Shown here: positions 16,201 through 60,164 of the stretch, piece after piece | How positions within the stretch are numbered: position 1 is the stretch's first letter | Layout of the letters: each line of letters begins with the position of its first letter | From: Heterodontus francisci | Lineage: Eukaryota | Length of the DNA: 64,000 bases | NCBI RefSeq assembly: GCF_036365525.1 | Contig: NC_090378.1 | Location: 73,330,413 to 73,394,412 of the forward strand | Direction: 5' to 3' | Program-made: the position numbers and the translations under genes | The notes under the pieces: model-generated | Told to the model about the DNA's origin: nothing | Seen by the model: the letters and a program-made list of their open reading frames with translations, nothing else | Database searches by the model: none

Positions 16201-19200
16201 CCCACAAAGTCACACACCATCCTGACTTGGAACTATATCGCTGTTCCTTCACTGTCGCTGGGTCAAAATCCTGGAACTCCCTTCCTAACAGCACTGTACA
16301 ACACATGGACTGCAGCAGTTCAAGAAGGCAGCTCAGCATCACCTTCTCAAGCCCAATTAGGGATGGGCAATAAATGCTGGCCTTGCCAGCGTCGCCCACA
16401 TCCCATGAATGAATAAAAAAAAATCAGGATAGCCAACAGTCTAGACACCTGCAGGGGGTTAGTCAGAAAATGACTCCTCCATAAACAACAGTACATAAGG
16501 GTGTTTATTGAAGATGCACATAAAGTGCATTATAGGGAGGGTGCTTTATGTGATTTCTCTATTACCAAAACAGCCATACAAAATTGTATCCCATTTCACA
16601 AAGTGGCATGTTAAAGACAGAAGTGCAATTGAAAAGTGCTTAATATAGTTTTTCAAAGGGAGTTATAAATAATGTGCATAGTATTGGTATGTAATTAATA
16701 AGGAAATGACATGAGATGTCTATTACAAAGATAAGTCAAAGAAAATTATTGGAAACGTGTTTTTTTAAAGGAGAAGGGGAGCCCTAAGCAACTGGTGTTA
16801 TATCAGCAGATTGTGATACACAAGGGCATGGTGCTATGGATCTTTAGATGTTTAGAGAAATAAGCCACACAGAAACAGGAACAGAGTATTCAGGCAGTGC
16901 ATTACCTTCATCTGCTGATCATGGGAACTGATGGTTTGCAGCAGTTCTGCTACCTCTTGCTCGTGATCAACCGCCAATAGGCTTCTATCTGTGAGCACTT
17001 CCTGCAGCATTCGCTCCTTCAGCTGCAACCGCAGTCTCAGCTGTTCCATCACCTCATCGGACCCAACGCTAACCTTATTCATCAACACTACAGTCAGATC
17101 CTGCCAGGGAGATGTGAACAAAAAAGCGGCACTTCAGAGTGTGGATTGGTGTTCTGAAAAAACTTGTCACTGAGAGACAATCATGAATTATATCTTATTT
17201 GGGAGTTACTCTCAGAAATGCACGAACACATTGCACCATGGTAGGCACCCTTACTTTCCGACAAAGACATTTCACTTCCCTTGATAACCCCTAACTATCA
17301 AGCTCAGGTAAAATGCCTGTGTGCACTTTTTAAGCATGCTTATTAACTTGTTTACACAAAACCAGTCATCCACATTAAATAGGGCACAAAGGAATTTTAT
17401 GGGAACATACTAATCACTGTGCTGCCAGAGGGATGAATATTTATAGAACCAATAATTCCAGTCAAGTTCAATTGAGATGAGGAGAAATTCTTCACTCAAA
17501 GGGTTGTGAATCTTTAGAATTCCCTACTCCAGAGAGTTGTGGATGCTCAGTCATTGAGTATATTCAAGACAGAAATCAATAGAATTTTGGATATTAAGGG
17601 AATTAATGGAAATGGGGATAGTGGAGGGAAGGGGGAGTTGAGATAGAGATCTGCCATGATCATAATGAAAGGTTGAGTGGGCTCCAGGGGCTTACTCCTG
17701 CTCCTTTTTTTAAATCTTAGATATCCTATAGTTTGAATAGAGCCCTTTTACTTTCCATGTGGACAGCCCCACTTGCTAACAGGATCTGGGTAACCGGGGA
17801 GGAAAGTACAGTAATGCTGAATCTAAGAAAGGGATTCTGAACAGACAGAAAACACATGGAGCAACAGCTCTTCTCAGGGTTACAGCACACCAGAATTTTG
17901 CAATATATAGACCCTGGGCTGCATTATGAGCATCACTACCTAACTGTAAAATATTCAAGCACGAACCAACTGGTTGATCACTGCAAATTTGTGCAATTGT
18001 TTTTCATAAAATGCATTATTTTCAGAAATTTATTTTGCCATATCACCATGAATAGGATTTGTATTGTCAAAGCTCTGACTGAGTTTTTCTTTCTGTGGCC
18101 TAGGCAGTTCCCTACCTCTACCTCCTTGTTGCAGTTGTGCAGTGCTGCCTGGAGCTGACTGTTGACTGCGTCCTTTTCCTTCAGGGAGAGGACATGCTTC
18201 TCCTCCACCTCCTGCTTCAACCACTGCAGATTCTTGTATGTCACTGTAATCTGTTCTAACTCCAGGTCCTTGCCTTTCATGAGGCTCTCCAGACTCTGAA
18301 AATTGGAGGATAAAAAGATCACAATCACAAGCTCAGTTCAGATCCAAGCCATTCGGCTCATTAAGTCTCATCTTGCACAACACTACATATTAAAACAGTC
18401 TTACATGCTACAAGCATCAAAAATACAAAGAGAATCTAAATCTACTTTACTGAGTGTTTCGTCATTGTTTGAAAACACTGTCAAGGGTCGCTCACACATA
18501 GAAAATCAGTGAGGCAACAACCAACCAATTGAGTGTTCAAGCATAAGCTCTCGAATTGCACAGAACTGCCCGAATGAAGATTTTAACTAATTTTTTTTTT
18601 AAATGAACATTTCTCAAAGTAACTGTACTCCTCTCACCCACCCTTACTTTCTAGTCAAGAGAACATAAAAATGTAGTAAGTACTCCAGTCAACCAAAATC
18701 TTTTTACAAATCGTTTTGGATTGCTATTCAACATGATGCTTGACCAATAATACTGAGGTCCTCTTGTAGATTTAAAATCAGCCATCTGCCATTTCAGATG
18801 TGGCACAGATATTCTTCACAGTTGTTTAGTTTGTAATGCAGCACAACAGTAGGTACTCTGTACATTTAAAGGGACTCTCTGGATTCCAGCAATTCCTGTT
18901 TAACACAGGACCAACCCCCACCTCCCATCACCTCACCCTTCCATTACTTTATCTGCCAACAGCATTGATGTACTTTTGGCATTTCATCAGCTAAGTAAAA
19001 ACAAACGTCTGTATAAGCCTTGGCTCAGTGGTATCAGTCTCTCGCCTTTGAGTCAGAAGGTTAAGGGTAAAGCCTCATTTCAGGACTTGATCAAATAATC
19101 GAGGTGGACATATCAGTGAAGTGCCGAGGGAGTGTTACACTGTCAGAGGTTCTGTCTATCAGATGAGACTTTAAACCAAGGGTCTATCTGCCCTCTCAGG

Positions 19201-22200
19201 TGGATCAAAAAGATCCCATGGCACTATTCAAAGAAGAGCAGGAGACCTTTCCTGGTGCCATCATTTATTCCACAACCAACCAAGAACAAATAACATGGTC
19301 ATTCATATCACTGCTGTTTGTGGTGGAAGGTTGCATATGCAAGTACAATCTTTTTCTTTAAAGTGACTGCTCAAATCTCAGTCACTGCAGCCACTTTCTG
19401 TACTGATAGGATCATTAGCAGTTTCTCATCACTAAGTGACGAGATCACACAGCTTGCTGCTTCTGGCTAAAGTACACAAGTAAATAATCAAAGTTAACAC
19501 CACAGGGCTTTGTGAATTGGGATTTTTTTTGTGATGAAACAAAAGAGAAGTTTTATGGATGTTAACAATTTTCTTTGACTTTGATTAAAAAATGAAAACA
19601 AGGTTTAGGACACAGAGTTTAGAGATTTCATGATTTCAGCCAGCAGCTAAAATGATGACATCACCATGTGATGATAAAAGGTTGCCAACAAATTCTGCAT
19701 GCAATAAAATGGCTGCATTCAATGACAAGGATGCAACATAATTGTAAAGATAAAAGCATGTCAATGCTGGGCAGTTGTTATGCAAGAAGGACAGAATTTT
19801 CCCAGCGAGTTCCAGTCTGTGCGGAATGGGAAAGTCCCGGAAAATGACGTTGGGTCAGAATCCTGACGTCATCCTGCCTTTTTCCGGCTTTTCCTGGGGT
19901 GTGGTCCGAGTCCTGCGGGGAACCCCCATGGGTCTGGTGGGATTGCAATTTAATAGATTAAAAAGGCCTTTTTAAGCATGAATTCTTCTTTTCCCAACAG
20001 CACGTGGCTTCCATGCTGTGTCTGCAACTCTCCAGGGTCACCGAGGCAAGTGCACAGCAGGAAGAGCTTCTTCAGTGAAACTGACAGGTTGGGAAGGGTT
20101 TGACCAGTTAACTGAAGAACTCCAGCCATGGCCAATGGGAGACTGCTGTTCAAAGCACTTCTTCTCTTAGACAGTGCAGTCACTTCTTGAAAGCTGCTTG
20201 CTAACTTCCTGAAAGACACTTCACCTGTCTAGCACTTCATTCATATTCAGCTGCAGTTTCCTGCTGCCAGCCTTCCATGCATGTTGGCAGCATATGGAAC
20301 TCCACCTTCCACTTCTGAAGAGAGGCAAAAGCAGAGGCCACACCCCCGCCAACAGATCCAGCAGCAGCAGAAGCAACACCAGCAACTGCCTTCTCCTCAG
20401 CTGCATACCCCTCCACAGGGCTGATGGGATGGACTTTGAGATCCAGCTGGAAGGAGGTGAGACTCCCAACACAGGGTCTACAAGCAGAGGATCAATGCTC
20501 TCAACATGTTTCAGAAGGCTCAGGCTTGCAAGGCACGTCACTACTGACATATGCAGCCTCCTGGAATGAAAGCTCCTTCCCAGTGGAGCAGGTGGGAACA
20601 CATTGGCAATGGCTGACAGAGTGCCTGTCACTGGAGGGCCAACCGCTACCCTGCACCATCACCCTCCCCGCCCCCAGCCCTGGGTCTGTGCCTCTTGCAA
20701 AGTTGTGTGCTCTCTTCATCTGCAAGGAGAGTAAGCAAAGAGGTGTAAATGTTCATAATAGCTTGTGTGGAAAGGAGGGAAGGCAACATTTGTGGGGGGT
20801 GCTGTGAGGCATGGATGTGAGAGGAGAATAGGCTGTGGGTGTGAGTGTAGGCTGTTCAGATGGGGATGTGAGGTGCCTAGAGAGAGAGGAATGAGTGGAG
20901 TTGCAAGGTGTTCTGAGGAGTGCTGTGTAGGAGAATGCTGGGAAAGTCAGAGTTTGGTGCTTGGCACCTCAAAGTGTTATGCCACACATCTTTCCCACCC
21001 TCCAGAGGTCCTGGATTCTCTTGGTGCACTGTCTCCAGATTGGAGGGACCACACTCCTGCCACTGACTTCCTCGGCCACTTCTATCCAGGCCTGTTTGTT
21101 TGGAGAGGTTGTCCTCTTCCTCCTGTCCTTGGTAGAGTTTGCCTCACTGCAGCCTCTCAGATCCTGCAGCAGGACCTCCAGGTAACAGAGAGGCCCAGGG
21201 AGCAATTTTCCCAATCTCCTCTCCGTCCCTATGGTTGCTGTAGCCTCAAAAATCCAAGTGCTGGTGTGCCCATGTAACCCATGGTGATCCCTTAATTAGA
21301 AATCCTTCCTTTGTTAGAATGGACATATCATCCTGCCCACCCTTCCTAGTTGGCCTAGGAGCCCAGAGGCGGGATACTAATGCCATTGCTCTGGGAAAGA
21401 GGCTCAGCAATGGCCGTCCATTGAGAAATCGGGTTCCAACCCGAAAATGGCCCCGTAGTTTTGGCAGGGACTAAATAAACAAGATTCCGCTGAGCATCTG
21501 TGCATTAAACAGAATGAAGTAGAACCTGTATGACCTCTTTCACTTATCTGGTTGAACACTCTACGTTATTTATTTCTGGCGTAAATAAATGTAGATATGC
21601 AGTGTGTCCACTTACATTAATAGTCTCTTCGTTATTGGAGAAGATGCAGCGGAATCTCTCCAGATCCCTTTCTTTCTCACGTAGAGCAAGGTGCAACTTC
21701 TGGATTTCACTCTCCTTTTCTTCCAAGGTACAGAACTTCTCATCAATGGCACGCTAGAAAGAAATTGTATAAGTGGTCTCCAACTCGTTACAAAATATGC
21801 TCTCCTGATTCTCAGAAAGTTTGAAAATTGAAGAGATCTTGAACTCTGGGACCTGCACTCTGTAAAGTATTTTGGAGCAGTGACAAATGAATAGCAAATG
21901 AGTAGTGAATGTCTTGGGAAGTTTTACTATGTCAAAGGTGCTATAGAAAGGCAAGTGGTTGTAAATTATGATGCTGTAGTACTAATTTTCTGCCACTTGA
22001 GACATTTCTAAAATCCTCCTTTTGTCAAATAACCTACTCATTACTTTTCCAATAAACTACTGAATGGACAAATGCAACTTGTCCAAGTACCTGAAAGTTT
22101 TGACATAAGAAAGAATGGAATTAAAAAAGTATATTCTGCCTATCGAGCCTATTTTCTTCTTCATACGTTTTAAAAACTCTCCTTTGATGGACTCCACCAC

Positions 22201-37200: not shown

Positions 37201-40200
37201 TATAAGTTCTCAAAAAGACATTCAGACTTCATTAACAAAAGCTCTTGCAAAGGAAAGTAGTAACTAAATTATTTAGTTTGGAGATTATCTCACTAAAATA
37301 AGATAAACATCTACATACACTGGTGCAGTAAAATTGGTTTCAAAAAATTCACAGCTCCACTGCTGGCTCAGTCTGCAAGTATACCTCCTACTGTGTCGTG
37401 TGCCATACAGACTAGGAAAATCCTCAGGTTTAGTCCCTGGTCTATTAAGTTTGCTGTTTTCACCGAGGCAACAGTAAGAATGTTACAATTGAGCTTAATG
37501 ACCACAAACTATTCACAGCAGGAGAAATTTCACTTTGCTATCAGTAAATGGGCAGTGGCTAAAAGATTGGTCTCACTGTGATGCCTCTCCCATATTGAAA
37601 GAGCATGCCAACACTCAATATCTAGGCCCACACAAGAATGCTTGCACCACAGTAGATGTCACCAGATTAGGAGGAAGGTAGGAAATTGCATGTGATAGCA
37701 ATGTCACGTCATTATCAGAACCAGTCAGTCCAATGTTTGATGGATAGCGTTACTAGCTGACGCCCCAAAGCATTGCTCAGTGTGTTGGCATTTAAGCCCC
37801 ATGGCCTTGCTCAGTGTGATGTAATTTATGGTTTTGCAGTGGAGAGGAAAAGGGTGCTTTAGAAGCATGAAAAAAATATGGAAAAAAAGTACTTGTAAGA
37901 AGTGCTTAGACACTGTTAGGCAAGTGTTTAAGCAGTTTTTAAAAAAAACATTCCTGGCACTGGAAGCAAATCAGTAATTTTTGGATTGAAACAGAAAACA
38001 TTGGAAACAATCTCCACAGATGCTGTCTGACCAGCTAAGAGAAACAGAATTAACATTTCAGGTTGATGATCCTTCATCAGAATTGGGGGATGGGCACTGC
38101 ATGCATGACAGATTTGGGCTAGACAGAAGACTTAAATTTATATGTAGATGGATGGATAGATGCTTCCCAAATTTGACCATTTTTAATGATTTCTACATAA
38201 ATTTGCAGTGTGGTTATCACAACAATAATTCATTATGAATTAGTGACATGGAGTCCACAATTGCTGTCTTAATGACAGCCTCCAAAACTAGACAAAAAGA
38301 ATCCCACTATTCCCCCCTTCAAACAAAATTACAACCAGAGATAATACATATGTATTATATGTATATGTATCATCAGGTGAAAACCAGTAAAATAAAACTC
38401 AGTGGAGCTAAGGGAGTGAAATTAATCCTTTTGATAATTTAATTGTATTTTGAGCATATAACTTTTTTTGCTAAACTTATCGACAGGAGGAATTCTGCAG
38501 CCACAGAGTAAAGGATTGGTGTGAATTAAATTGCTTTAAGAAATGAGAGACAGAGTGTGATTACAGTGCTGCCACCTAAACCTGGGTTGCAAAGCCTGAT
38601 CTAAACCAATTTAAATATTGCTCACATGAGTTTATAGTATCATCTGGGCCTCTTAATTAGAATACATTATTATAATCACTTCTAGGGTATGCATTATTAT
38701 GTGATATACAGCAAGATGACAACAGTTTCACAGATGATGAGTTTAACAAGTTTTAATTGATTTCTTTCTCCGCATAAACAATGCTGACTGATATGGGCAA
38801 TTGTCGGTCTATAAACCAGTACCCATGGCATTCAGTGGGTTACTAGCTACAAGTTTAGCATGTTATATAAGAGGCCACATGCAGGTTTTGTTGTCCTCTT
38901 GTTGGAAATGGGACTCACTTAGGAAGTAACTTGTTTCTGTAAATGGGCAGGTGGTAGAATTGGTATTCTGGGGGGCGTGAGATCAAATAGGTTGAAGGGA
39001 CTTCTTTATCTGAACCCATTTGTACACTTCTGCAACCCTAGATAGATGACTGGGCAGGACTATGTAACTGATCAGCTGCAAATCAGTGTCGCTTTTGCAG
39101 CATTACAGATCGTTGCAGCGATGAGCTTCCATCCCTGTAATAAGGAAACCATTTTTACATCTACAATAGGGTCTATTTTCTACGTAATGTGAGAGTCTCC
39201 GGGTGCACTCAAAGTACTACACTGAAATAACAGTTAGTGTGGGAAGACTGCACAAGTGCAGGTGCTCAAAATTTGTAGCTTTAAAATTTAAGTTTCTTTA
39301 AACCTTCCCAAAAACCACACTAAAAGCTCAATTCTGGCTTTGTTGTCACCATGGAGGTTGAACCCATCTCTCGAGGTGCATCCCTGCGCTTTCTGCAGCC
39401 ACCCTCACTACATCATTTTTGCTGGACTGGTGCTGCAAGAATCAAACTGCCGCCAGAAGCAGCAGTGGTGGAATGTAAATGCAGTGCTCAATGTTACTGC
39501 CAGGCTTCACTATCGGGACACCAAATATGATAATGATCTCATGACCAAATTGTGGAACATGGGAAAGAATAGGTAGCCTCTGAAATAACACTAGGATAAA
39601 TTCATTGGATCCCCATTGTGCTGTGCTTGACGGGAACACCTGGCAAGAGAATCTGCACAACAGTGTTGTAGCTCTATCTCTGACCCACACTCTCAGGTAC
39701 AGCTCCCTGCTGGGAGAAGGAGATCAGTGAATTGACTCTACTATTTCAAAATAATCCTTGCCAGCACAAACCACTGTCTGAAATCAGCATATATTTATGT
39801 TACAGTTTGTGAGCTGTTGGCTGAAGAGCATCACTACAGATGTTTAACTCTTTAATGCTCCTTAAATTGAAGCACTCATGATAGAACAGATGAATGTTGA
39901 TGGACAGGATAAGCAGTCAAGTGAAACAATTTTACTTTCAGGTTCATGAATCTCTCCCAATCATCCTCTGTGAAGCACCTCAGGATGTGTTTTATATTAA
40001 GAGTGCTATTTAAATTCAAGTTGCTGTTGACATCAACAAAACAAAAAAACACCCATAATTCAGCAATCTCACTGGAGGAGAGCAGGATGGTTAGTGTGGA
40101 TAAATCTGAGGTGAGGAAGCACGTTATCTGGACAAAGCAGATGGTGTTTTGCTCTGCAGCTGTGCCAAATCTGGGATTGCTCGATGTCGACATTCAGTTA

Positions 40201-43200
40201 CATGCCGCAGCACGAACATCCATCATCCAGATGAACACAGAAACTCACAGACACAAAAAAGTAATCACAATGTAACAATGATTTCAGCTGATCAATTTCA
40301 AGCATGAATGACTCACAGACATGCTTATACATCACAAAGCTAAGATAACAAAATTCAATCCCTGATCTGTCATTTCCACTGATGTTACTGGTGCTTGTTC
40401 AACTCATTTGAGGAAGGTTGTGGGGAGGGGGGAGAAACTGGGCTTGCAATAGATGAGCTACATTCTCAAAGGGTGGCAGGGAAGTCAATCTGAAGACCAA
40501 GCTGGCCTATGAATGTTTTTTTTGCTGCACTCCCCTGCACCCCCAACTTTGACTTAATGGCAGTTGGGAGAGGAGATTCCTGCCTGTCCTGCCAGTTGGG
40601 AGTGATGTATGTGCCTTTCTAGGAGTAGAAAGAGGAATTGCAAGGGCAGAAAGCAACTAAAAGTGTCTTAAATACAAACATTTTTTATTCAAAGGGACAC
40701 TGTGGAAACTGGTGATACAGTAGATTAGACTCTACCTTTCACCTCAGATGCCTGGGCTCAAATCTAGGTCAGTCCAATGCCAAGAAAGTGTTCTCTGTCC
40801 ATTGGCTGGAAAGATTGCATGTGCAATGAGTTTGGGCAGTCTCAATTCATTTCTTAGAGAGTGTAAGCGTACAATGCAAAACTGGCACCAGTTAGCAATC
40901 TCACTCAGACAGACTGATGTGGGAAACAGAAGAAGTTACACTTTGGTATATTGGGGATATTCTTCTGAGGTTAGAGCAAAGGCACATTGTTTGGGTAGCG
41001 CAGAGGAAGCTTTACTCTGCATCTAGTCTTGGTACATCTGACCTGGGACTACTTGATGCTGACACTGGGGTTTCGATTTTAATTGATTCAACAGGCAGAA
41101 AGCAGGCGAGGGGGCAGTGGACTTATTCACTCTTTTGCTGCCCTGATCTGGCTGACTATAATTTTAAATGGCAGATGACAAGGGCTCCTGTCCCAAACCA
41201 ATGGAGTCCTTTTATAATTCTCCTCTGATGAAATCACTGGGGCTTGATCTGCTTTTTTTTTTAAACCAGAGGCCTGAGCAGTGGTGCATTCCCAACTTCC
41301 CTGCCAGGCCAAACCAGCTGGGGAACAGCAGCTGGGGTCAGAAGAGGCACAACAAGTTGCCTTAAAAATTTTATTTGGTTCCTTGTGGGCTAGGAGTGCT
41401 TCTTTGGGCCCCACTAGGAAGTCTTGTGCCTCCCCCTGCAATTCCCCAATGATCCACTAACTTGCCCCAGGACCATTGGCTCCCTGCTAGCAGGCCCCTG
41501 CCACCCAATTTTAAAGGCCAGGCAGCCAGTTCCTGCAGACTTAACAGTCATTTTGGTCAGGAAGTGGAACAACAACAAACTAATGAGGCCCGTCCGTTAA
41601 AATCGGTTGATCCTGACTGCTGCTCCCAGGCACATCACTTGCTTTGTTGTGTTCCTGCCCAGGAGTTAAAAAAATCAAGAGATTAGTGTCTACAGTGGAA
41701 AGTCTTCCATTCTCCAACACTGACTTTCCTCAACTTGATGAGCACAATTTTGTTTTAAAATGGACACTGAACTCCAATTATATATAAACTTCAAAAGGAA
41801 ATTTAATGCAAAAGGTACCCAAATTCATGCTAAGTGACTAAAATAAGAAAACACAAAATAGGACACCGCATTTAAAATGATGCCCACATTACTCTTGTGC
41901 ACACCCTCTCATATCCTTAGGTCTGTAACTGCTGCATAGCTGGAGGCCCACGCCTTTCAAGCCCAATGAAACAAGAAACAACAACAAATCAATGCAGAAT
42001 ACATTAAATACTCCACAAACCCTGTCATCTATGTTGATCAATATCTTTCATTGGACCATTTACACATGGCAGAAACTTTCATTATTACTACCAAGATGTG
42101 TAGCATTATAAAGAAAAGCCCTACATTTCACATGTGAGCTGTTTATCAAACAACCATTGATGCTGGAGTGGGGGGGGGGGGGGGGGGGGGAGTGGATCAT
42201 TGAAGAGAAAGTTGAGCAACAACTTTAAAATCCTCAAAAGTTACAGATTTGTCTGACAATGCTGAAACCTCTGTTGCTTTTGACTGCTAAAATTGGGTCA
42301 TTGGAGTAATAAGAAGACAACAAACATGACAGTCACACTTCAAGTACCTGAGTGCGAATTGGAATATATTCATCAAGCAAGTCCTGCAGGAGGTCTTCAA
42401 GATCTGCCATATCATCAAAGTTGAGATGCATCCTGGGAGGTTCTATGTATTTGCTGGAGAATTCATAACCATTGTTCTGTAGATGAGATCTGGAAATCCC
42501 ATCGCCCAAACTGCCACTTGACTGAGAGCCCAAAGGACTGGGCCTGACTGGAATTGGCAATTTGCTGCCTTTTGGGCTCTGAACAGGCCTGTATTCAACA
42601 TTCCTGACTAAGCTAAGTACAAAGTCCAGCTTTTGGCTGTGCAACAAAGGATGGGTTGCTGGGGTATCAGAAAAGTCCGATTTGGGACTTTTGTCATCTT
42701 TGGCACCTTTTTCTATTTGTACCACTTCTCTATTGGGTGCAGGACTGGACTCCACTGCTGCACTAAGAGATTCGACAGAAGAGGCTGGAGATATTTTATC
42801 CAGAGAGTCAGCATAGACAGAAGTCCTTGAATCACACTGTCCAATGGACATAGTCTCGTGTATGACTGGCATTGTGAGTCCTTCCTCAGCAGTTATGCTG
42901 CCCATCACACTACTTCCGGACCTGATGGACGGATCACCAGATACAGTCTTTGCCAATTTCCGAGGGACTCTGCAAACTGCCTCATAGTCTGCATCGGTCA
43001 CACGTAAGGCTGAACAGCTGCGACACTTCCGGGATTTGTAGCTGGAGATCTCTGAAGTCTGGCAGCTGTGAGATTCCATGGTTTCTTCCCCATGCTCTGT
43101 CCACGATTCAAATCCAGAATAGACAAAGTCATCCTGGAGCAGAGCATGGTACCGAACATCAGAAAGATTTGAAACATCCACCGCGACATCCTCCCCCTTG

Positions 43201-43523
43201 CTGTCAGTGCTTGGCTCCTCATTATTTTTACGATAAAGACTAGCTATGCAGTGCTTGATCCGATCCTTCTCTACAAGCAGCTTCTGCAAACGTTCAATAG
43301 ACAGTGCCTCAATCCTTGCAATGACTGTGTCAAACCTGTAGATACGATCTAACATGAAAGCACATTTGCTGCAAGCAAACTCTGCCTTTCCATCTCGGGA
43401 CACCTCTTTGCCCAGTATGTGGGATAGGATGACCTGTAGGTTGAGTTTGGAAGCTGTGTGAAAGATCCATCGCCGCTGGTTACCACACAGTTCCCGGGCA
43501 CAGATCCTACAAACCTCCTTCAT
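4017..43523 (-). CDS. PDE4DIP: Myomegalin / PDE4D-interacting protein, short MMG8/SMYLE-type isoform, 17 exons, ~1181 aa: complement(join 42348..43523, 35131..35268, 33186..33305, 30964..31056, 28573..28794, 27404..27562, 24816..24929, 21616..21753, 18116..18295, 16906..17100, 13532..13720, 9692..9797, 8827..8954, 7442..7558, 6795..6932, 5506..5618, 4017..4236)
   Basis: Exons read by hand on the minus strand, all flanked by AG/GT. Phases add up to 3546 nt with no internal stop. Peptides follow the recalled human myomegalin sequence in order (MKEVCRICARELCGNQRRWIFH..., RAIDEKF, DLQMQLV..PAMERLTQE, AERQLY.SLVKFH). Confidence 0.9.
5103..5146. repeat. 44-bp direct repeat of 3973-4017
   Basis: attttcaaggtaaccacca(t)cccacactcc[g/a]ctgcaccagca[c/t]gc. 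Confidence 0.9.
5506..5618 (-). CDS. PDE4DIP: PDE4DIP exon (LICALEEQTLEQSRLSEALRAERQLYNSLVKFHTQTD)
   Basis: ttggcag| acceptor, AG|GTAAGA donor, 113 nt phase 0-2. Confidence 0.92.
6232..6372 (-). mobile_element. CR1 LINE 3' end fragment
   Basis: Homologous to 10206-10353 and to the reverse complement of 63190-63268 (ccattcaataagatcatggctgatc). Confidence 0.7.
6795..6932 (-). CDS. PDE4DIP: PDE4DIP exon (DLQMQLVQPCEFPAMERLTQELLVLRDRVANMESSTQRIRGKKHHE)
   Basis: ccacag| acceptor, GAG|GTATAT donor, 138 nt. Confidence 0.92.
7442..7558 (-). CDS. PDE4DIP: PDE4DIP exon (LELATLQSALSNQEREFQRQTVEIEALSNNIRIKEECIK)
   Basis: ttccttctcag| acceptor, AAG|GTCCGT donor, 117 nt. Confidence 0.9.
8827..8954 (-). 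CDS. PDE4DIP: PDE4DIP exon (ALQATLDGDEAMADSEQEDIRQVELDQVKEELQLVLRKEKETR)
   Basis: ttctcttgttaacag| acceptor (phase 1), AGG|GTGAGT donor; resembles recalled human KEELELMAKKERESQ. Confidence 0.88.
9692..9797 (-). CDS. PDE4DIP: PDE4DIP exon (ELVQDGQSKNEPSLQPEKMEASEPIDTQQNTNEKE)
   Basis: ctcttcag| acceptor, G|GTGGGT donor, 106 nt phase 0-1; its phase matches the next exon's aacag|CA acceptor. Confidence 0.8.
10206..10353 (-). mobile_element. Short CR1 3' tail inserted in the older CR1
   Basis: TSD agctt at 10201-10205 and 10354-10358; acatacaa-type microsatellite tail. Confidence 0.75.
11452..11724 (+). mobile_element. LTR plus primer-binding-site remnant inserted in CR1
   Basis: Starts TGTTG, interrupts CR1 (cagtatc|cttggatgcatccc), ends with TGGTGGCAGC (PBS-like) at 11711-11720. 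Confidence 0.55.
13532..13720 (-). CDS. PDE4DIP: PDE4DIP exon (DAAERLTRTLVEKNHELQALRRQL...LLQEKDRLIH)
   Basis: ttgctcag| acceptor, CAT|GTAAGT donor, 189 nt. Confidence 0.92.
14309..16423 (+). mobile_element. 5'-truncated non-LTR retrotransposon (CR1/Jockey group) with disrupted RT
   Basis: ALDIKAAFDRVWH, GVPQGSILGP, MFADDCT motifs across several frames; 3' tail caattagggatgggcaataaatgctgg...catgaatgaat(A)n. Confidence 0.92.
16906..17100 (-). CDS. PDE4DIP: PDE4DIP exon (DLTVVLMNKVSVGSDEVMEQLRLRLQLKERMLQEVLTDR...HDQQMK)
   Basis: ctggcag| acceptor, AAG|GTAATG donor, 195 nt. Confidence 0.92.
17472..17715 (+). mobile_element. CR1 LINE 3' end
   Basis: gagatgaggagaaattcttcactcaaagggttgtgaatc... 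homologous to 63020-63268. Confidence 0.8.
18116..18295 (-). CDS. PDE4DIP: PDE4DIP exon (SLESLMKGKDLELEQITVTYKNLQWLKQEVEEK...LHNCNKEVE)
   Basis: ttttcag| acceptor, GAG|GTAGGG donor, 180 nt; within ORF 17978..18328. Confidence 0.92.
19789..21491. mobile_element. Internally deleted PIF/Harbinger DNA transposon
   Basis: Left end ggacagaattttccc; + strand transposase remnant (FRRLRLARHVTTDICSLLE); - strand Myb/SANT-like remnant (LEVLLQ..KQAWIEVAEEVS..WRQCTKRIQDL). Confidence 0.75.
21616..21753 (-). CDS. PDE4DIP: PDE4DIP exon (RAIDEKFCTLEEKESEIQKLHLALREKERDLERFRCIFSNNEETIN)
   Basis: ttctag| acceptor, AAT|GTAAGT donor, 138 nt. Confidence 0.93.
22345..22957 (-). mobile_element. tRNA-derived SINE with a 3' tail shared with the 14.3-kb LINE; interrupted by a solo LTR
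   Basis: Head tagtggtaatgtcactg..gagttcaaatcc (A/B boxes); tail caagggcaattagggatgggcaacaaatgc; uninterrupted copy at 29249-29666. Confidence 0.85.
22563..22802 (+). mobile_element. 240-bp solo LTR
   Basis: TGTTAG...CTAACA termini, 5-bp TSD CATTA, TATATATAAA at 22665, AATAAA at 22731. Confidence 0.85.
23271..23465 (-). mobile_element. 5'-truncated HE1-like SINE with poly(A), nested in a Deu-type SINE (~23102-23640)
   Basis: Homology to 25965-26140; T-run at 23271. Confidence 0.8.
24816..24929 (-). CDS. PDE4DIP: PDE4DIP exon (QYIELFDCQQNEEQSGEERGALVDKLRERIKERDKALE)
   Basis: ttcgtag| acceptor, GAG|GTAGGT donor, 114 nt. Confidence 0.9.
25957..26287 (-). mobile_element. HE1-like V-SINE (shark tRNA-derived SINE with CR1-type tail)
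   Basis: tggtgcagtggttagcaccgcagcctcacagc..ccgggttc head; V-domain gtgggtttcc..ggtgctccggtttcctcccaca; tail gggccgaagggcctgtttcagtgctgta. Confidence 0.88.
27404..27562 (-). CDS. PDE4DIP: PDE4DIP exon (ELRSSLQQVRQELLVKEQHYQALEREHQREVHVQGENIQCLKERLQDKEHFLQ)
   Basis: ttttag| acceptor, CAG|GTACAA donor, 159 nt. Confidence 0.9.
28573..28794 (-). CDS. PDE4DIP: PDE4DIP exon (STDGQLAPPHAQQQAELLELQSTSFSNQLKLQRSQRIIRQKE...TIRHNQ); alternative in-frame acceptor at 28812
   Basis: CAA|GTAAGC donor; acceptors tgtcag| (222 nt) or ttgtag| (240 nt), both phase 0. Confidence 0.88.
29249..29666 (-). mobile_element. tRNA-derived SINE, full-length copy of the same family
   Basis: End-to-end homology to 22345-22957 without the LTR. 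Confidence 0.85.
30964..31056 (-). CDS. PDE4DIP: PDE4DIP exon (VEELYRVINSQNETQAKLREILHRSQLENLK)
   Basis: ccctcag| acceptor, AAG|GTAGGT donor, 93 nt; matches recalled human EELYQVIEGQNDTMAKLREMLHQSQL. Confidence 0.92.
32080..32440 (+). mobile_element. CR1 LINE 3' end (old)
   Basis: CR1 ORF2-end and 3' UTR signature (...aaatggccttctcctgtgctg). Confidence 0.7.
32449..33103. mobile_element. Non-autonomous Harbinger-type MITE
   Basis: TIRs cagcagaattttcctg / caggaaaattcagccc. Confidence 0.7.
33186..33305 (-). CDS. PDE4DIP: PDE4DIP exon (MLQENLREMESELKAVRYAAQKQERTQLGLNEALKNKEKE)
   Basis: ttctccag| acceptor, GAG|GTAAAT donor, 120 nt. Confidence 0.92.
34143..34555 (+). mobile_element. SacSINE1/Deu-domain-like SINE; related copies near 12120-12430, 13810-14005, 19015-19350, 26430-26810(-), 29015-29735, 46280-46870(-), 48790-49010, 51150-51350, 53330-53530
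   Basis: tggctcagttggtagcactc..ggttcaagtcc head; ctttcagatgaga..aaac, gtaaaagatcccatggcac, ctggccaacatttatccctca core. Confidence 0.8.
35131..35268 (-). CDS. PDE4DIP: PDE4DIP exon (NLIEEQQQQLNQYESAAGQCVSELQKAQVQVHGLQGRIQESESANK)
   Basis: ctcccccag| acceptor, AAG|GTGAGC donor, 138 nt phase 0-0, coiled coil. Confidence 0.9.
37985..38085 (-). mobile_element. Degenerate PLE pseudo-LTR fragment with hammerhead remnant
   Basis: Reverse complement ctgatgaaggatcatcaacctgaaatgttaatt; homologous to 45135-45264. Confidence 0.6.
40700..40915 (+). mobile_element. Ancient LF-SINE-like remnant (weaker copies ~7130-7330, ~27860-28030)
   Basis: cctttcacctc..ctgggctcaaatc..gtgcaatgagtttgggcagtctcaattcatttcttag resembles the recalled LF-SINE consensus. 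Confidence 0.45.
42170..42190 (+). repeat. G21 homopolymer
   Basis: 21 consecutive G. Confidence 0.9.
42348..43523 (-). CDS. PDE4DIP: PDE4DIP internal first coding exon (SMYLE-type N-terminus, 392 aa; CRIC/CSKC motifs, SKLPIP EB-binding motif)
   Basis: ORF 42333..43652 from its Met44 (ATG at 43523): MKEVCRICARELCGNQRRWIFHTASKLNLQVILSH...; donor CAG|GTACTT at 42347. Confidence 0.95.
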
Positions 43524-43849: not shown

Positions 43850-44780
43850 CGATGGTTTCTCCCTGGCGCCAATTCAGATATGTTTAACACCAGTTTTGGC
43901 GCTTCCTAGAACCATCTCAAAACGTAGAACGGAGGCGCCACCTCACATCTCGATGCAAATATCACGGTTTTAAATTTATCTTCCATAAACATACACTGCA
44001 ATAAATTATCAATTAAAATCAGCACATCTCATATAATTCACTGATCCGTGGTTTCCTGTGTCTCCAGTGAAAGGCAATGCAATTACAGGTGAATCAAAAA
44101 GCGAACAGTGCTTTGTACGTTTCCCAGAAACAAGATTCCGCCCCCACCCCCTAAGAATTCAGGGAGTATGCCGATGGTTTAAGGCAAACCGAGTGTCATT
44201 GTGATCTATAAAATCCCGGGTCCGGTGAATGCACATCAGCCTGTTTTATTCTTGATACATTTCTGAAGTATCTCAGTGCCGACTGGAACACTGCATATGG
44301 TAGGAAATATCTCTTAATTTACTCCAGCAGCTTCGACCAGAGGAAGAACCATGTCACGACCGAGGGCAGACAATCACACCATCATCCTCTTATCTCTGCT
44401 GCTCCCAGTTAGAGGTGAAGGGGAGAGGAATTTAATATCAGAGCTGGGGCACCGCCCACTGAGTATCAAACAAAGCTGCAGTTGACGAGTGACGGGACAG
44501 ACTGAAGGAGATTCTCGCTGCTGATATTGTTCGAATTGATTAAATCACGTCCCGTTATGTGGGTTTCCCGGATACAATGTCACTAAGACGGGAAACTGCT
44601 GCTTGCAACCATCTAACCCGGCAGTGATGTGGCAACACTGTAGCTGAAGCTGACAGTGCTACAGGGATCTGGGACAAACCATCTGCCACTTGGGGGAGGA
44701 CCCGCTACACTCTGCGCGTCTTAAGCTGAATGCAGGGTCACATACTGCGCTGCCATTTACGACGAAATAACCTTATGGGT
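43850..44780 (-). promoter_or_regulatory. Putative internal promoter / 5' UTR of the short PDE4DIP isoform
   Basis: No recognisable repeat, visibly more CpG than the surrounding introns, directly upstream of the internal ATG exon; TSS not determinable. Confidence 0.35.
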
Positions 44781-44918
44781 TAAAATTCAATTCCGGGAGG
44801 TATGCCACAGGAATGAGAATTCTGCAGCCATCTGAAAGGAAGGCTTCTATCTTAAGTCGCACCCGACTGTATTGTGGTATGGTTCTCTTCCTGGTAAGGC
44901 GACCACAATTAACATGCA

Positions 44919-45264
44919 TATATAAAACCAAAATACTGCAGATGCTGGAAATCTGAAATAAAAACAAGAAATGCTGGAACCACTCAGCAGGTCTGGCAGC
45001 ATCTGTGGAAAGAGAAGCAGAGTTAACGTTTCGGGTCAGTGACCCTTCATCGGAACTGGTCGGAGAGAGGAGCAGAACTTCTTCAAGGTAGGCATTCCTG
45101 GAAGAGAAGTGGCAGTGAATTAAACACTAAAATAAAAGCAAAATACTGCGGATGCTGGAAATCTGAAATAAAAACAAGAAATGCTGGAACCACTCAGCAG
45201 GTCTGGCAGCATCTGTGGAAAGAGAAGCAGAGTTAACGTTTCGGGTCAGTGACCCTTCATCGGA
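44919..45264 (-). mobile_element. Young Penelope-like/retrozyme-type partial tandem (210-bp period) with 14-bp TSD
   Basis: Two near-identical ~130-bp direct repeats (from ~44925 and ~45135); flanked by acaattaacatgca at 44905-44918 and 45265-45278. Confidence 0.8.
45021..45057 (-). ncRNA. Minimal type I hammerhead ribozyme motif (PLE-type), copy A
   Basis: Minus strand: AGTT-CCGATGA-A-GGGTC ACT GACCC-GAAAC-GTT^AACT. Helix I AGTT/AACT, helix II GGGTC/GACCC, palindromic ACGT helix III; core has a U4C variant. Confidence 0.7.
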
Positions 45265-45266
45265 AC
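45231..45266 (-). ncRNA. Minimal type I hammerhead ribozyme motif, copy B
   Basis: Same core as copy A, offset by 210 nt (upstream on the minus strand); helix I GTT/AAC. Confidence 0.65.
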
Positions 45267-45275
45267 AATTAACAT

Positions 45276-45773
45276 GCACCTCATTTATCGATTCGGTACG
45301 CGACAGCCTACCGGACTGAACAATGAGTTCAATAATTTCAGAACATGATTGGTCCTTTTTCAGTTTTACATTGTATTTCATTTTATTTTGTTTCATCATT
45401 ACATTTTTTTTAACCATGTGCCTGTCCACTTTAAAACATTTTTTCATGTTTTTGCTTGTGGCTGGGGCTTTACTTGTTCTGCCAGTTAATACCCTCTCTG
45501 CACTAACGCTTTGTATTTCACCACATCTTTAACACACTCTTTACCTTTGCCCCATGACCTTGTCAGTTATTCTCTGTGACCCTCTGTCCTATCAACATCT
45601 TCCCATTTGTTCTCTTTTGACCCACCCCCACTTTATTTGCTTAAAACCTATTACATTTCTAACCTTTGTCAGTTCTGATGAAAGGTCCACTGACTTGAAA
45701 TGTTAACTTTGCTTCTCTCGCCATAGATGCTGCCAGACCTGCTGTGTATTTCCAGCACTCTTTTGGTTTTATT
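45276..45773 (+). mobile_element. 5'-truncated Penelope-like element (GIY-YIG ORF C-terminus, 3' UTR, pseudo-LTR)
   Basis: 45277-45348 encodes HLIYRFGTRQPTGLNNEFNNFRT*, typical of a PLE ORF end; hammerhead-bearing repeat; TSD acaattaacat at 45265-45275 and 45774-45784. Confidence 0.8.
45671..45708 (+). ncRNA. Degenerate hammerhead motif, copy C
   Basis: AGTT-CTGATGA-AAGGTC CACT GACTT-GAAAT-GTT AACT; canonical core but helix III C>T. Confidence 0.55.
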
Positions 45774-47419
45774 ACAATTAACATATCTTTCTCCAGCTCA
45801 GTTACATGTAGCACCTGGCACCGTGTGCCAATGCATTGGCTGCAGCATTGGCTCGCATCCCAGCTACCGGCTGAAGAACACATTTAAAAAAAAACTTCAA
45901 ACGGAAATTTGTTTCCTCTTTATCATGGATAAAAGACTGACTATTGTGAAAACGCTGCACGTTTCAACAGGCTGGAGCGATAATCTTGTTTCGAGCATGA
46001 TCGGCTTGGCAAACACATTGCGTTGTGCGAGATTGGTGCGCACTGTGAGAAAATCCCCAGCGGTTGACGTTGCAGTCACTTTAAAAATACAACTGATCTC
46101 GCGCACCCTTAAAATATCAGTTTGTAATGAATGTTCCTAATGTCTCACATCCTGTTTTAAGTGAAGAGGTTTGAATTTGTCAAGATATAATCTGATAATC
46201 CATAAAAAGTTACAATACAACAATTTTTTAAGTTACAAACATTGTTGCGACTTTAAAATGGTGATGCTTAACAAAAAGAAAACGCTTGTATTTATTAAAG
46301 CACCTTTCATGACCTCAGGACCTCTTAAAGTGTTTTGCAGCCACAAGTACATTTGAAATGTAGTAACTGTTTGTATAGAAATGCACCAGCCAATTGGCAC
46401 AGGGCAAGGTCCCACAAACAGCAGTTAGATAAGTAACCAGATAACTGAAGCCGTTACCAGGGACGCGGCGGCCGCCCCCTCTTCAGCATCGGGGGCGGCC
46501 ACTCCACCCCCTCTATTTAAATGAGTCTCCGCGCATAACATCAGGGACAGCGCATCCTGCGGAATGCATGCTGCCATCAGAGTGCGCCGCCATGAACTGC
46601 GCGCACTCGTAAAATTCAGGCCGTTGGCTTGTCACCACATTCTGAAGGGCAGTTAAGGATGGGTAGTTAAGTAAGGGTGGTGATGTTGGTTGAGGGATAA
46701 ATATTGGCCAGGACACCTCACCTGCTCTTATCTGAATACTACCATGTGATTTTTCTTTTTATGTCCACTTGAGAGTGCAGATGGGGTGTCAGTAAAACAG
46801 TGCAGCACTGAAGTAACACCTCGATTATGTGCTCATGTTTCTGGAGTTGGGTTTATACCCATGACCACCTAACTCAAACAAGAGGATCAGATGGTAAGAG
46901 CATCAGTTAGAGATTTGGATGAATGTTTTACTTTTTAAGTGTATATAAAATGGGAGATTACGTTTAGAGCTATGGAGAAAGCGCGAACCTACAGACTTGA
47001 GCTATCGTTATATGGAGTGTTGTATTTCAAGGTGTAGAGCACACGGAGATTCTTTTTTGGTATTCATTGACTTTGTTCTGAAGCTTGTCGATTGTCTGGC
47101 CTCGTCCTGTTGTTGAAGGTGAAAAGAGTGGACAAGGATCAGTGTGAAGCACTTTTACTTGGAAACACTGCTGTGCAGATTTACTTCCTGGACGAGACAG
47201 AAGCCCTGCAACGATAGACAATGATGAAACAACATGTGGGATGATTCAGGCAACTGTAGCTGTAGATTCACTGTGGGCAGTTTGGTACCCCTGTTGCTTG
47301 CTACTGGGCGTCTGAAGCCACATTATCATTCAGCAACTCCCCAAATAACTGAGCATCCATATTTTGGATTTACACTGCTCACTGAATGGTGTCAGTATTG
47401 GCTCAATGGGTAGCACTCC

Positions 47420-49680: not shown

Positions 49681-49864
49681 AATCAATAGCTAGTTAATTT
49701 TGCTGAGTAACGTAAATCACAATTGAACATCCTTGTGAAAAAATGAAGACTTGAATTGGTACAGTGCCTATGTCTCAAAAAAGCCCCAAAGTGCTACAGA
49801 GAATGAACTAGGGTACAGGAACTGTTATTACATGTGGAAATATAGCAGTTATTTTGCACTCAGC

Positions 49865-50950
49865 GAGGACTCACAAAAAGCAGAGATAAATGGCATGGTG
49901 AGCTCCTGGTAGGCCACCTACTCCAAGAGGGACCCACCAGTGTAAACAGAATACTGGCAATACCACAGCACTGTCCTGCCAGAGGCAGGAGAAGCGGCAA
50001 GGGATCATCTGAGCTCCAGGACAGCACTGTAGGAGTTCCTCAGGGTAGTGTCCTAGGCCCAACCATCTTCAGCTGCTTCATCATAAGGTCAGAAGTGGGG
50101 ATGTTCGCTGATGATTGCACAATGTTCAGCACCATTCGCAACTCCTCAGATAGTGAAGCAGTCTGTGTAGAAATGCAGCAAGACCTGGACAATATCCGGA
50201 CTTGGGCTGATAAGTGGCAAGTAACATTCGCGCCACACAAGTGCCAGGCAATGACCATCTTCAACAAGAGAGAATCTAACCATCTCCCCTTGACATTCAA
50301 TGGCATTATGATCTCTGAATCCCCTACAATCAACATCCTGGGGGTTACCATTGACCAGAAACTGAACTGGAGTAGCCATATAAATACTGTGGCTACAAGA
50401 GCAGGTCAGAGGCTGGGAATCCTGCGGCGAGTAATTTACTACCTGACTCCCCAAAGCCTGTCCACCATCTACAAGCCACAAGTCAGGAGTGTGATGGAAT
50501 ACTCTCCACTTGCCTGGATGGGTGCAGCTCCAACAACACTCAAGAAGCTCAACACCATCCAGGACAAAGCAGCCCGCTTGATTGGCACCCCATCACAAAC
50601 ATTCACTCCATCCACCACCGACGCACAGTGGCAGCAGTGTGTACCATCTACAAGATGCACTGCAGCAGCGCAGCAAGTCTCCTTAGACAGCACCTTCCAA
50701 ACCCGCGACCTCTACCAACTAGAAGGACAAGGGTAGCAAATGAATGGGAACACCACCACCTGCAAGTTCCCCTTCAAGTTACACATCATCCTGACTTGGA
50801 ACTATATTGCTGTTTCTTCACTGCCGCTGGGTCAAAATCCTGGAACTACCTCTCATGGACTGCAGCGGTTCAGGAAGGCAGCTCACCACCACCTTCTCAA
50901 GGGCAATTAGGGATGGGCAATAAATGCTGGCCTAGCCAGACGTCCAAAAA
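49865..50950 (+). mobile_element. Internally deleted copy of the same LINE family as 14309-16423
   Basis: ORF 50095..50736 nearly identical to 15256..16373 peptides; same 3' tail. Confidence 0.9.
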
Positions 50951-51741
50951 AGGGATGTTAAAGAGGTTGAAGTACCCTGAAGATCAGACTGTATCTCCCA
51001 CTGAAGGTCTCAGCTAAGTATTTAGGGATAGACTAGAAGATAAGGCAGCTGTATTATCCTAAAAGTGGCAGCTTCAGGAGAGTTTTCAGGACTGTATATT
51101 TTAGCAATAAACTTAAAGGATCCCAATATGTCAGAAGTTTTTTTTGAAGTGTACAATGAAGGAGTTTTGCATTCTGTCAGATGAGACATTAAACCAAGGA
51201 TCCATCTGTCTTGGTCAAGGCACAGGATGAATTTCCTGCTCTTCTTCAAATAGTGCCATGGGATTTTTTTTTTTAAATCTACATGAACTACTGAAAGAGA
51301 GACAGGAATTTGGTTTAAGGTCTCCTTCAATGCTGCACTAAGGTGTCAGCCCTTACTGAAATATAGGACTAAAATACAGTCTGGCAGCTAATTTCCAAAG
51401 CCCCGTCTACTTATGAGGTAACTGCCTTCTTACCTTCTAGGCCCTGGTCCTAGCTGAGGCCATTGGTGGGAGATGCACATTGATCTTCAGGGCTCTTTAA
51501 GGAGGTCCTTCACTGGCTCTTCTGTGGCATCCCTGCTGTGGTACCACCGATATTTTGTTCACACTGGTGAGTGCCTCTTGGCAGGAGGCATCCTGCTAGC
51601 ATTTTATTTTTTTTTTAAAAAAGAGTCCCAATCCAGGGAAATGGGTCTGGGTTGGGGTGGATTTGGAGAGACAGGAGGAGAAAGTCCAGCCAATGTTTGG
51701 AGTAGCAGACTGTGACACAGGGGAATGTATGGTCAAATTAG

Positions 51742-57700: not shown

Positions 57701-59181
57701 TGCACAACAGCCCACCACGATACGCGAGACCCTGGCCGGGACATAGAAGGGCTCTACTGGACCAATCGAAGCACCTGTATCTCATCTTGAGCAAACCAAT
57801 GTCCTGCTCTATGCTGCTCACGTTGTCCCATGGCAGGCGTTGTAACTCTCCTCTGCATCTGTGTGTGGGTTCCTCAGAGGCATCAGTAGCCATGTCCTCA
57901 GTGGGTAGCCCTCATCTCCAAGGATTGATCCCTGAAGCTGTGCGGGTGGCCAGAAAAGCTCTGGCACCAGGGACTGCCTTAAAACGTAGGCATCATGGAA
58001 ACCCTGGGAAATGTGCACAGACCTGCAGGATCCATCTACAGTGGTCACAAACAAGTTGTACATTGAGGAAGTTGAAGCCCTTCCTGTTGATGAAGGCCAC
58101 TGGCTGGTGTGCAGGAGCCTTGTTGGCCACGTGTGTGCAGTTAATGACACCTTGCACTTGGGGGAATCTAGCGATGGCTCCGAACCTGATGGCCCTCTCA
58201 GCTTGAGAGCTGGGATCTGTGCTGAAGTACAGAGTCGCCAGCCCACCTGAAACGGCATTGGTGACCTCCTTAATGCACTGATGTGTGCTATCTCAGTCAG
58301 TGGACCATGTCCCCAGTGGATCCCTAGAATGATCCAGAAGTGTAGAAGTTCAGTGCCACTGGCATTGGATTTCCACCAAGTACGCTGGGGCACAGCTTGT
58401 CCTATATCATAGAGCACAGGTCAATGATGGCCTCCCTGGAGAGGTGGAGTCTTCATGGTACACAGGTAGTTGAGCCTCAACCAATGGACCTTCTCTGTAG
58501 GGTACCTACTACTCTCTTTCCCCTCTGAACCTTTTTCCACCTGGAGGTTGCTGCTGACCCACCTGTGTGTTCATAGGCTGTTGTGGTGCCACTGTAGATG
58601 CCTGTCCCTCCCTCGCGCTCTGTTGCGCCTCTTCAACGGAGTGCCTGAAGCCTGGATGAATGAGGCCCACAATAGGTGGCCTCTCCCCAAATGCTAGTCC
58701 TTCACTGCCAGCAGCAACGTGCCCGCATCCTCCCAGCGCCCACCCCCCCCCACGCCCCCACTTGTGAGCTTTGCCAAAGTGGCACCTGCCTGTTGCACCC
58801 CTTCCAACGCACCCCCCTCACTGCTGTTCAGACACCATTTCCCTCACTCATCACACAATGCATGATGTCCTCTCTTCACCACCTTGCCAGGCAGTTGATA
58901 GTTGCCCTCCCAATGGCCTCCCCTGGCAGCCAGCCTTGCTCTCCTGCCTCCATGAAGGAAGAGAGCCATTTATAAATTTCAATCCCAACCATAAAAATTG
59001 CTTTCAATTGGCCTCTTGACTATCTTAATTACCTGTTAGCCACTTCACATCGGAACTCCGCCCTCCACAAAATCGGGATGGGATATCAAGACATCGGACT
59101 TCCTGTTCGACATGTCCCATCCCAATTTTTATGTCCCCATGCCTCTGTTCCCATCTCCTGGGTGCACTTACAATTTGGCCC
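54730..59181. mobile_element. Decayed PIF/Harbinger element (Myb/SANT gene +, DDE transposase -), interrupted by an LTR
   Basis: 54760-54950 QVLLQAARER..KQAWL*IAEDVS..KALNDL then gtgagt; 57490-58500 [45 protein letters not shown]; right end caatttggccc. Confidence 0.85.
56190..57237 (+). mobile_element. Solo LTR, copy 2, containing a 69-bp CR1 tail (56474-56542, TSD ctaact)
   Basis: TGTTAC...GTAACA termini, flanks atgac/gtgac, AATAAA at 57045. Confidence 0.85.
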
Positions 59182-59830: not shown

Positions 59831-59884
59831 CTGCATTTCCTGTTGGGTCCGCAACTTCTCTCTACCCAGTTCGTCTTGCAAATC
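59831..59884 (-). CDS. PDE4DIP: Probable upstream exon of the long PDE4DIP isoform (DLQDELGREKLRTQQEMQ)
   Basis: Strong ttctctctgttgtcag| acceptor, CAG|GTAGGA donor, 54 nt phase 0-0, coiled-coil composition, non-repetitive context; can splice in frame to 35268. Confidence 0.7.
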
Positions 59885-60164
59885 CTGACAACAGAGAGAA
59901 CCAACTGTTTACTATAGGGCATGGCCTACCATTGTTCAGCAACTCAGTAATTCTCCAAAAAGTCTTTACTTTGCACTTGGCCCAGGAATATAGTCAATAG
60001 AATTTCAGCCTCTAACTCATACACACTAACAGTGCAGTGGCTCACCTCCTACTTGGTTCTCCCTCTGTCAGTGGCATTCTCAAATGAACAGTGCATCCTC
60101 CAGTGTTCCAATGGAGGAGAACCAATTTGCATTGATCGGAAGAAATATGTTCCCAGAAAGAAAA

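Follow-up and report, generated by a model that had tools for sequence, protein, structure and literature searches.

The window analysed in this work is the whole stretch of 64,000 nucleotides from Heterodontus francisci, which includes exons of PDE4DIP (myomegalin). The exons were mapped by tblastn of whale-shark myomegalin isoforms, which settled their positions. Short motifs of the myomegalin N-terminus were also searched for, and none was found in the window. The insert studied here is sense to PDE4DIP and intronic for the long isoform, and the ATG of the short isoform is 1.38 kb downstream of it. The original prediction had placed it in an intron of this gene just upstream of an internal first exon. 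The tblastn mapping agrees with that context and puts the element in the long-isoform intron (59831-35271), upstream of the short-isoform coding exon. The features of the locus are listed below.

59831..59890, minus strand: long-isoform exon (tblastn), with the next exon at 35271-35128
42342..43523, minus strand: coding part of the first coding exon of the short isoform, SMYLE/MMG8-type (tblastn; Pfam SMYLE_N, E=3e-68)
44919..45266, minus strand: young insertion composed of pLTR, 73-nt spacer and pLTR (1.65 units of 210 nt)
44905..44918, no strand: left TSD copy of the young insertion (repeat search)
45265..45278, no strand: right TSD copy of the young insertion, in which 45265-45275 doubles as the left TSD of the older copy
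45132..45266, minus strand: 5' pLTR copy, starting at the ribozyme 5' edge, with the first nucleotide of helix I missing
45059..45131, minus strand: spacer with an acceptor-like AG (45099-45098), an ATG (45095) and 37 nt of the ORF (MPTLKKFCSSLR) of a likely Penelope-like element (PLE)
44922..45058, minus strand: 3' pLTR copy, terminating at the common 3' terminus of the family
45232..45266, minus strand: minimal hammerhead 1, with U4C core, 3-bp helix I and predicted cut at 45235/45234
45021..45057, minus strand: minimal hammerhead 2, with U4C core, 4-bp helix I and predicted cut at 45025/45024
45276..45773, plus strand: older, 5'-truncated copy of the likely PLE, head-to-head with the young insertion, with ORF C-terminus, 3' UTR and pLTR
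45671..45708, plus strand: third minimal hammerhead, in the older copy, with canonical CUGAUGA core, antisense to the gene
45774..45784, no strand: right copy of the 11-bp TSD of the older element, the third occurrence of the TSD core
38037..38086, minus strand: solo pLTR fragment of this family, decayed, in the sense orientation of the gene and with the same 5' boundary

The young insertion has two repeats of 135 nt (44922-45056 and 45132-45266) with a period of 210. Both repeats are identical except for 2/135 positions (44928/45138 and 44940/45150). An exact 14-nt direct repeat at 44905-44918 and 45265-45278 is identified as the TSD. The TSD size is given as 12-14 bp because two of its nucleotides (45265-45266) are also part of the repeat. 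The last three nucleotides of the right TSD copy (45276-45278) are likely the first three of the older copy. These findings are consistent with the almost identical repeats, 210-bp period and 14-bp TSD of the original prediction, and they support the recent insertion that it suggested. Under the array definition of Li et al. (at least two consecutive hammerhead units; 10.64898/2026.07.22.740005), the locus exhibits two motifs but only 1.65 units, and TRF, run with parameters that differ from theirs, returned 0 rows for a tandem array.

The spacer likely consists of a PLE 5' UTR followed by 37 nt of the ORF (12 codons). The suggestion that an ORF starts in the spacer is thus retained as likely, with the ATG at 45095 and its 12 codons placed after the acceptor-like AG. 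The acceptor-like site (45097-45120, minus strand) lies directly before the ATG and scores 4.9, which ranks 30 among the 1714 AGs in 35400-59700. It may denote a 5' UTR intron as in Penelope, or a cryptic acceptor for PDE4DIP.

Each repeat reads GUU-CCGAUGA-A-GGGUC-ACU-GACCC-GAAA-CGUU-AAC on the minus strand, with core C3 at 45263 and 45053. Helix II of both young hammerheads has 5 bp and a 3-nt loop, and it is followed by GAAA-CGUU. The features of PLE-type hammerheads are present in both: G10.1-C11.1 closes helix II, one extra nucleotide follows A9, GAAA comes next, the ACGU palindrome is at 15.2-16.2, U16.1 and U17 (H17) are found, and helix I has 3 and 4 bp. The CUGANGA core is not found in either young copy (CCGAUGA), and two older copies in the window are canonical. 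Judged by their letters, the young hammerheads are assigned to a core variant of minimal type I. The original claim of minimal type I, PLE-type hammerheads on the minus strand is supported, and the cut coordinates it gave (45235/45234 and 45025/45024) were reproduced as predicted sites. The core, the 5-bp helix II and the ACGT helix III that it described also stand, and its helix I is corrected to 4 bp for the repeat ending at 45056 and 3 bp for the repeat ending at 45266. Its caveat on U4C in both cores is supported. U4 is present in 56/56 representative minimal hammerheads of Fig. S3 (PMC4209133). The U4C change considerably lowers hammerhead activity in vitro, and it is sufficiently active in vivo for a viroid (PMC3088659). 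Both young copies have U4C in common, and therefore it came from their source.

The minimal-hammerhead descriptor has 3 matches in the window (the two young motifs and 45675 on the plus strand) and 0 matches in 100 simulated 64-kb sequences of equal dinucleotide statistics. Rfam has 0 matches at the gathering score in the whole window, and its hammerhead families have none at E<=10 in 44800-45900. The hammerhead search that had been proposed as a check was thus positive with the descriptor and negative with Rfam. The basis of the identification is therefore the minimal consensus from the literature and not Rfam. The motifs of 35-37 nt are no more stable than shuffles (z of -1.1 and -0.8; MFE of -8.6 and -8.0 kcal/mol). 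Helix II has a probability of 0.73-0.89 when the young insert is folded alone. Covariation could draw on just 4 copies in the window, where 93% of the cells are paired and 2/11 pairs changed on both sides, and 61/500 shuffles are as high.

Four of 24 sequencing runs were aligned to 43900-46300 at 90% likeness. Run X1 (DNA) has 86,068 contigs on this region and run X21 (capture) has 44,453 of its 11,989,820 reads there, in both cases nearly all on the repeats; neither count is a copy number. The depth of X21 is zero in 18/30 bins, and every one of these bins is unique flank. Loose ends with unrelated flanks are found at 45128-45134 (254/207/315/654 contigs of X1 and 2672/1256/1352 reads of X21, among the ends listed). 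These ends of mixed sequence are in register with the 3' pLTR terminus and mark that terminus in many copies. X21 reads that leave the reference at 45057-45059 amount to 7,524 (1427+4548+1549, among the ends listed), and the sequence beyond these departures resembles the 3' UTR of the older copy and not the spacer. For pieces from other loci, the match breaks off at 45059-45081, beyond which several of them carry different sequence (among the matches listed). The repeat is very abundant and is likely the pLTR of a PLE family. A young subfamily exists, since 3,031 of the 44,453 X21 reads are at least 99% alike.

The anatomy of the locus is that of PLEs. The hammerhead-bearing terminal repeat comes after the 3' UTR and before the ORF start, and the insertions are 5'-truncated, partial-tandem and inverted, with TSDs at AT-rich sites. 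The ORF with telomerase-like RT and GIY-YIG is represented at the locus by just 23 C-terminal and 12 N-terminal codons, and no domain was recovered from them. The C-terminal ORF piece of 27-31 aa has no Pfam, no usable Atlas and no useful phmmer match. The single match of the 31-aa piece is a repetitive protein and was discarded as uninformative. The open frame that spans the junction has 1 match among 185 candidates, which covers the pLTR part only, and none near full length. The ORF C-terminus of the older copy, HLIYRFGTRQPTGLNNEFNNFRT* with its stop at 45346-45348, resembles the ..LxTxxPxGLN tails of GIY-YIG domains in PLE proteins. PLE membership is thus likely and not proven, since no RT or endonuclease domain was recovered; the assignment draws on ribozyme type, anatomy and short motif likeness.

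A translation that is 93% identical to that of the repeat was found inside an unrelated Heterodontus francisci gene model. This model is named 'eosinophil peroxidase-like' and has the translated pLTR near its N-terminus, which may reflect exonisation or else an artefact of annotation. When metagenome contigs, viral contigs and prokaryote genomes were scanned with exact patterns of the family, 0 loci matched, as is expected for a shark repeat. A published description of this shark family was not found in a literature coverage that is incomplete for subscription papers, Repbase/Dfam, and the supplements of Li et al. that list chondrichthyan retrozyme families. The window also has broken ORFs that resemble LINE-type reverse transcriptases at 14392-16373 and 49846-51017 (plus strand), a type that we presume from their translations. 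The ORF pieces at 57818-58420 (minus strand) and 20762-21295 are presumably Harbinger transposase and Myb-like remnants.

The older inverted copy was absent from the original prediction. Its pLTR has 83% identity to the young pLTR and carries a canonical ribozyme core. The young TSD overlaps the older 11-bp TSD, and therefore one site was likely used twice, with the older copy inserted first. The 11-nt AT-rich target contains ATT and appears to have been used twice in head-to-head orientation (44905-45784). A target-site preference of this PLE family is possible. A single insertion event for 44905-45784 was considered and rejected because of the target sequence that lies in the middle, the 83% identity, and the old junction in organism B.

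The flanks in organism B are about 3% diverged (29/981 and 16/571 letters). One contig of organism B extends 44 nt into the older copy, which is apparently shared with this organism. Another contig of organism B, from guessed RNA, departs at 44894, and its next 133 letters are unlike the reference. A DNA contig of organism A reaches 44949, within the young copy. The comparison suggests that the young insert is absent in organism B. Splicing to a 5' exon, or a difference between tissues, could also account for the departure at 44894. The AG at 44894 scores -0.2, which is below 15/15 of the gene's own acceptors (0.5-10.4) in a crude model trained on those 15.

We consider that the 374-bp unit is probably a single young PLE insertion in which the start of an uncleaved RNA was copied twice with a template jump, and that its ribozyme is likely inert in the pre-mRNA. 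In the proposed mechanism, the endonuclease of the element would nick an AT-rich site that an older family member had already used. Reverse transcription would begin at the usual internal site (44919-44922), cover about 138 nt and pass the hammerhead, stopping shortly upstream of it (45058). It would then jump, with 0-1 nt of microhomology, to ORF +37 of the same or another RNA and proceed to 45266, which is the same 5' point. Repair would yield the TSD of 12-14 bp.

The 5' boundary recurs within 3 nt at 45266, at 45058/9 and at 38086 of the solo copy. The spacer-less pLTR-pLTR joint from 45058 to 45131 is found in 4/4 runs (3, 1 and 1 contigs, and 1 read). The 30 nt that precede the cut site are retained in each of the two segments of the insert. 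The segments thus start a little before the ribozyme and not at the cut, and therefore the template was likely uncleaved RNA. An uncleaved linear template accounts for the ends of the insertion better than a circle does. The boundary upstream of helix I is initiator-like; the initiator consensus is YYANWYY, and such motifs are found at 1.1% of positions. The boundary is therefore maybe an RNA 5' end, or alternatively a stall at the ribozyme. In vitro, uncleaved RNA is the main substrate of the anole PLE, which starts reverse transcription internally and cuts at ATT (PMC11167929). Tandem and inverted 5'-truncated arrangements are described as typical of PLEs (PMC8557442, PMC2377424).

Rearrangements of the pLTR are present at low counts in the runs, namely the spacer-less tandem, a 38-nt back-jump and inversions. 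They suggest that template jumps are frequent in the family. Full-length copying of a pre-existing pLTR-spacer-pLTR master would have an identical outcome, and the 2 differences between the pLTRs are compatible with both the template jump and the master copy. Splicing was rejected as the origin of the internal junction, as no donor GT is present where related sequence passes ORF +37 (one record).

The same arrangement could arise if a full-length PLE (pLTR-ORF-3'UTR-pLTR) had inserted and its middle had later been deleted. A full element has this same order of 5' pLTR, UTR, ORF start and 3' pLTR, and the junction microhomology of 0-1 nt would also suit a deletion. However, the downstream breakpoint coincides exactly with the boundary seen repeatedly in other copies and other joints, which a random deletion would not favour, and we regard this origin as very unlikely. 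It is still less probable that the two motifs work together as a dimeric ribozyme, sever the pre-mRNA of the long PDE4DIP isoform and alter the balance between isoforms, and we regard this as extremely improbable. The original prediction had proposed such severing. The sense orientation of the pair within the long-isoform intron and upstream of the short-isoform coding exon speaks for it. A nested double hammerhead with all four helices can be drawn, and its penalty relative to the best fold of insert plus flanks is 17.5 kcal/mol. In the long-isoform pre-mRNA, the older copy is antisense and transcribed first, and the prediction is that it pairs with one young pLTR in a duplex of about 100 bp at -131 kcal/mol. 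The mean pairing probability of this predicted duplex is 0.88, the helix II probability of the ribozyme goes to 0, and the dimer penalty becomes 58 instead of 17.5 kcal/mol. These folds are equilibrium nearest-neighbour predictions. Dimers of minimal hammerheads are reported as slow and of low activity (PMC4209133), and slow intronic ribozymes as without effect on splicing (Fong 2009, as cited in PMC10274809). The predicted antisense pairing, U4C and the 3-bp helix I therefore make severing of the long isoform unlikely, and the claim is not upheld. An RNA-like contig of organism A starts at 44617. The regions 44629-44871 and 45925-46300 are both empty in organism A and both covered in organism B, which would suit severing. 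However, tissue, depth and the guessed RNA label of runs X5 and X9, which are available as contigs only, confound this contrast, and contigs cannot reveal RNA starts. The insert is also seemingly lineage-specific and not conserved. By these folding predictions, the ribozyme of the insert is probably inert in the host pre-mRNA. The anole PLE ribozyme requires protein (PMC11167929); given this aid and the activity of U4C in a viroid, weak folding energies are no proof of silence.

The older pLTR (45668-45773) forms an inverted pair with both 45160-45266 and 44950-45056, and a dsRNA of about 100 bp is predicted in the long-isoform pre-mRNA. This pair is a candidate A-to-I editing substrate.

Another explanation is a multi-copy non-LTR retrozyme, which would be either the 210-nt unit or the 348-nt pLTR-spacer-pLTR, with its own pLTR transcription, dimer cutting helped by protein, and PLE RT acting in trans, possibly from a circle. 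The size and ribozyme type agree with metazoan retrozymes (170-400 nt, PMC7229834), and retrozymes have been reported in one chondrichthyan (10.64898/2026.07.22.740005). This explanation also agrees with the U4C that came from the source and with the young subfamily in X21, and a transcript that starts within the insert would be without the antisense copy. On the other hand, the locus has 1.65 units and no TRF array, and a circle leaves unexplained a 5' end that lies 2 nt from the internal junction. Among the matches listed, 0/24 pieces cross 45058/45059, and 8/9 Xenopus dimers tested by Li et al. were uncleaved (10.64898/2026.07.22.740005). We therefore consider the retrozyme explanation doubtful. 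Its furthest form is unlikely. In that form, the 210-nt unit would be a young shark retrozyme made of PLE pLTR and ORF start with family-wide U4C, its initiator-like start at the ribozyme 5' edge would escape the antisense copy, and a protein-assisted dimer would cleave to a 210-nt circle. The promoter and splice acceptor added just upstream would also have changed the 5' end of the short isoform in this species. The single PLE insertion from an uncleaved template is thus the reading that we prefer.

The locus is likely a short PLE partial tandem that fits part of the description of retrozymes (two hammerheads, a 210-nt period and a long TSD). As it stands, it has little significance, as a shark genome contains a great many PLE repeats with hammerheads. 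Its modest value is that of a clean record of PLE mechanics, with two insertions at one target site, a 5' boundary whose recurrence points to an uncleaved template, and a natural U4C core.

The hammerheads at this locus are similar to the PLE minimal hammerheads described in PMC4209133. Both have one extra nucleotide, G10.1-C11.1 in helix II, GAAA-C-G-U-H and a helix I of 3-4 bp. Both have a loop-less palindromic helix III, and both are found in terminal repeats of a dispersed and abundant family. U17 is common in that source, and CGUU is found in 15/56 of its rows, as in the young copies. The U4C core of the young copies is found in 0/56 of its representative rows, which have no cartilaginous fish among them. 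The motifs are 210 nt apart in this work, whereas those in that source are about 3 kb apart.

The insertions are also similar to the partial tandems of Penelope and Poseidon PAc, as described in PMC8557442, PMC2377424 and PMC11167929. Both exhibit 5'-truncated, partial-tandem and adjacent inverted copies, an AT-rich target containing ATT, and a defined internal 3' terminus. However, the inverted neighbour at this locus is an older and separate insertion (own TSD, 83% identity), and the extension past the pLTR is 73 nt compared to a tail of 30-40 bp in those sources.

Non-LTR retrozymes, as described in PMC7229834 and 10.64898/2026.07.22.740005, share with this locus type I hammerheads, repeats of 150-450 bp, low GC, a TSD of more than 4 bp and kinship to PLE pLTRs. 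About 42-44% of the Xenopus retrozyme copies are intronic according to the same sources. However, the locus differs from non-LTR retrozymes as it has 1.65 units without a TRF array, a minimal and not a canonical ribozyme, and a unit in which the start of the PLE ORF is contained. Retrozymes derived from PLEs have already been described, among them those of one cartilaginous fish, and the link from PLE to retrozyme was proposed by Li et al. (2026) from phylogeny (10.64898/2026.07.22.740005). If the 210-nt unit were multi-copy and circular, the locus would capture the emergence of a retrozyme from a PLE.
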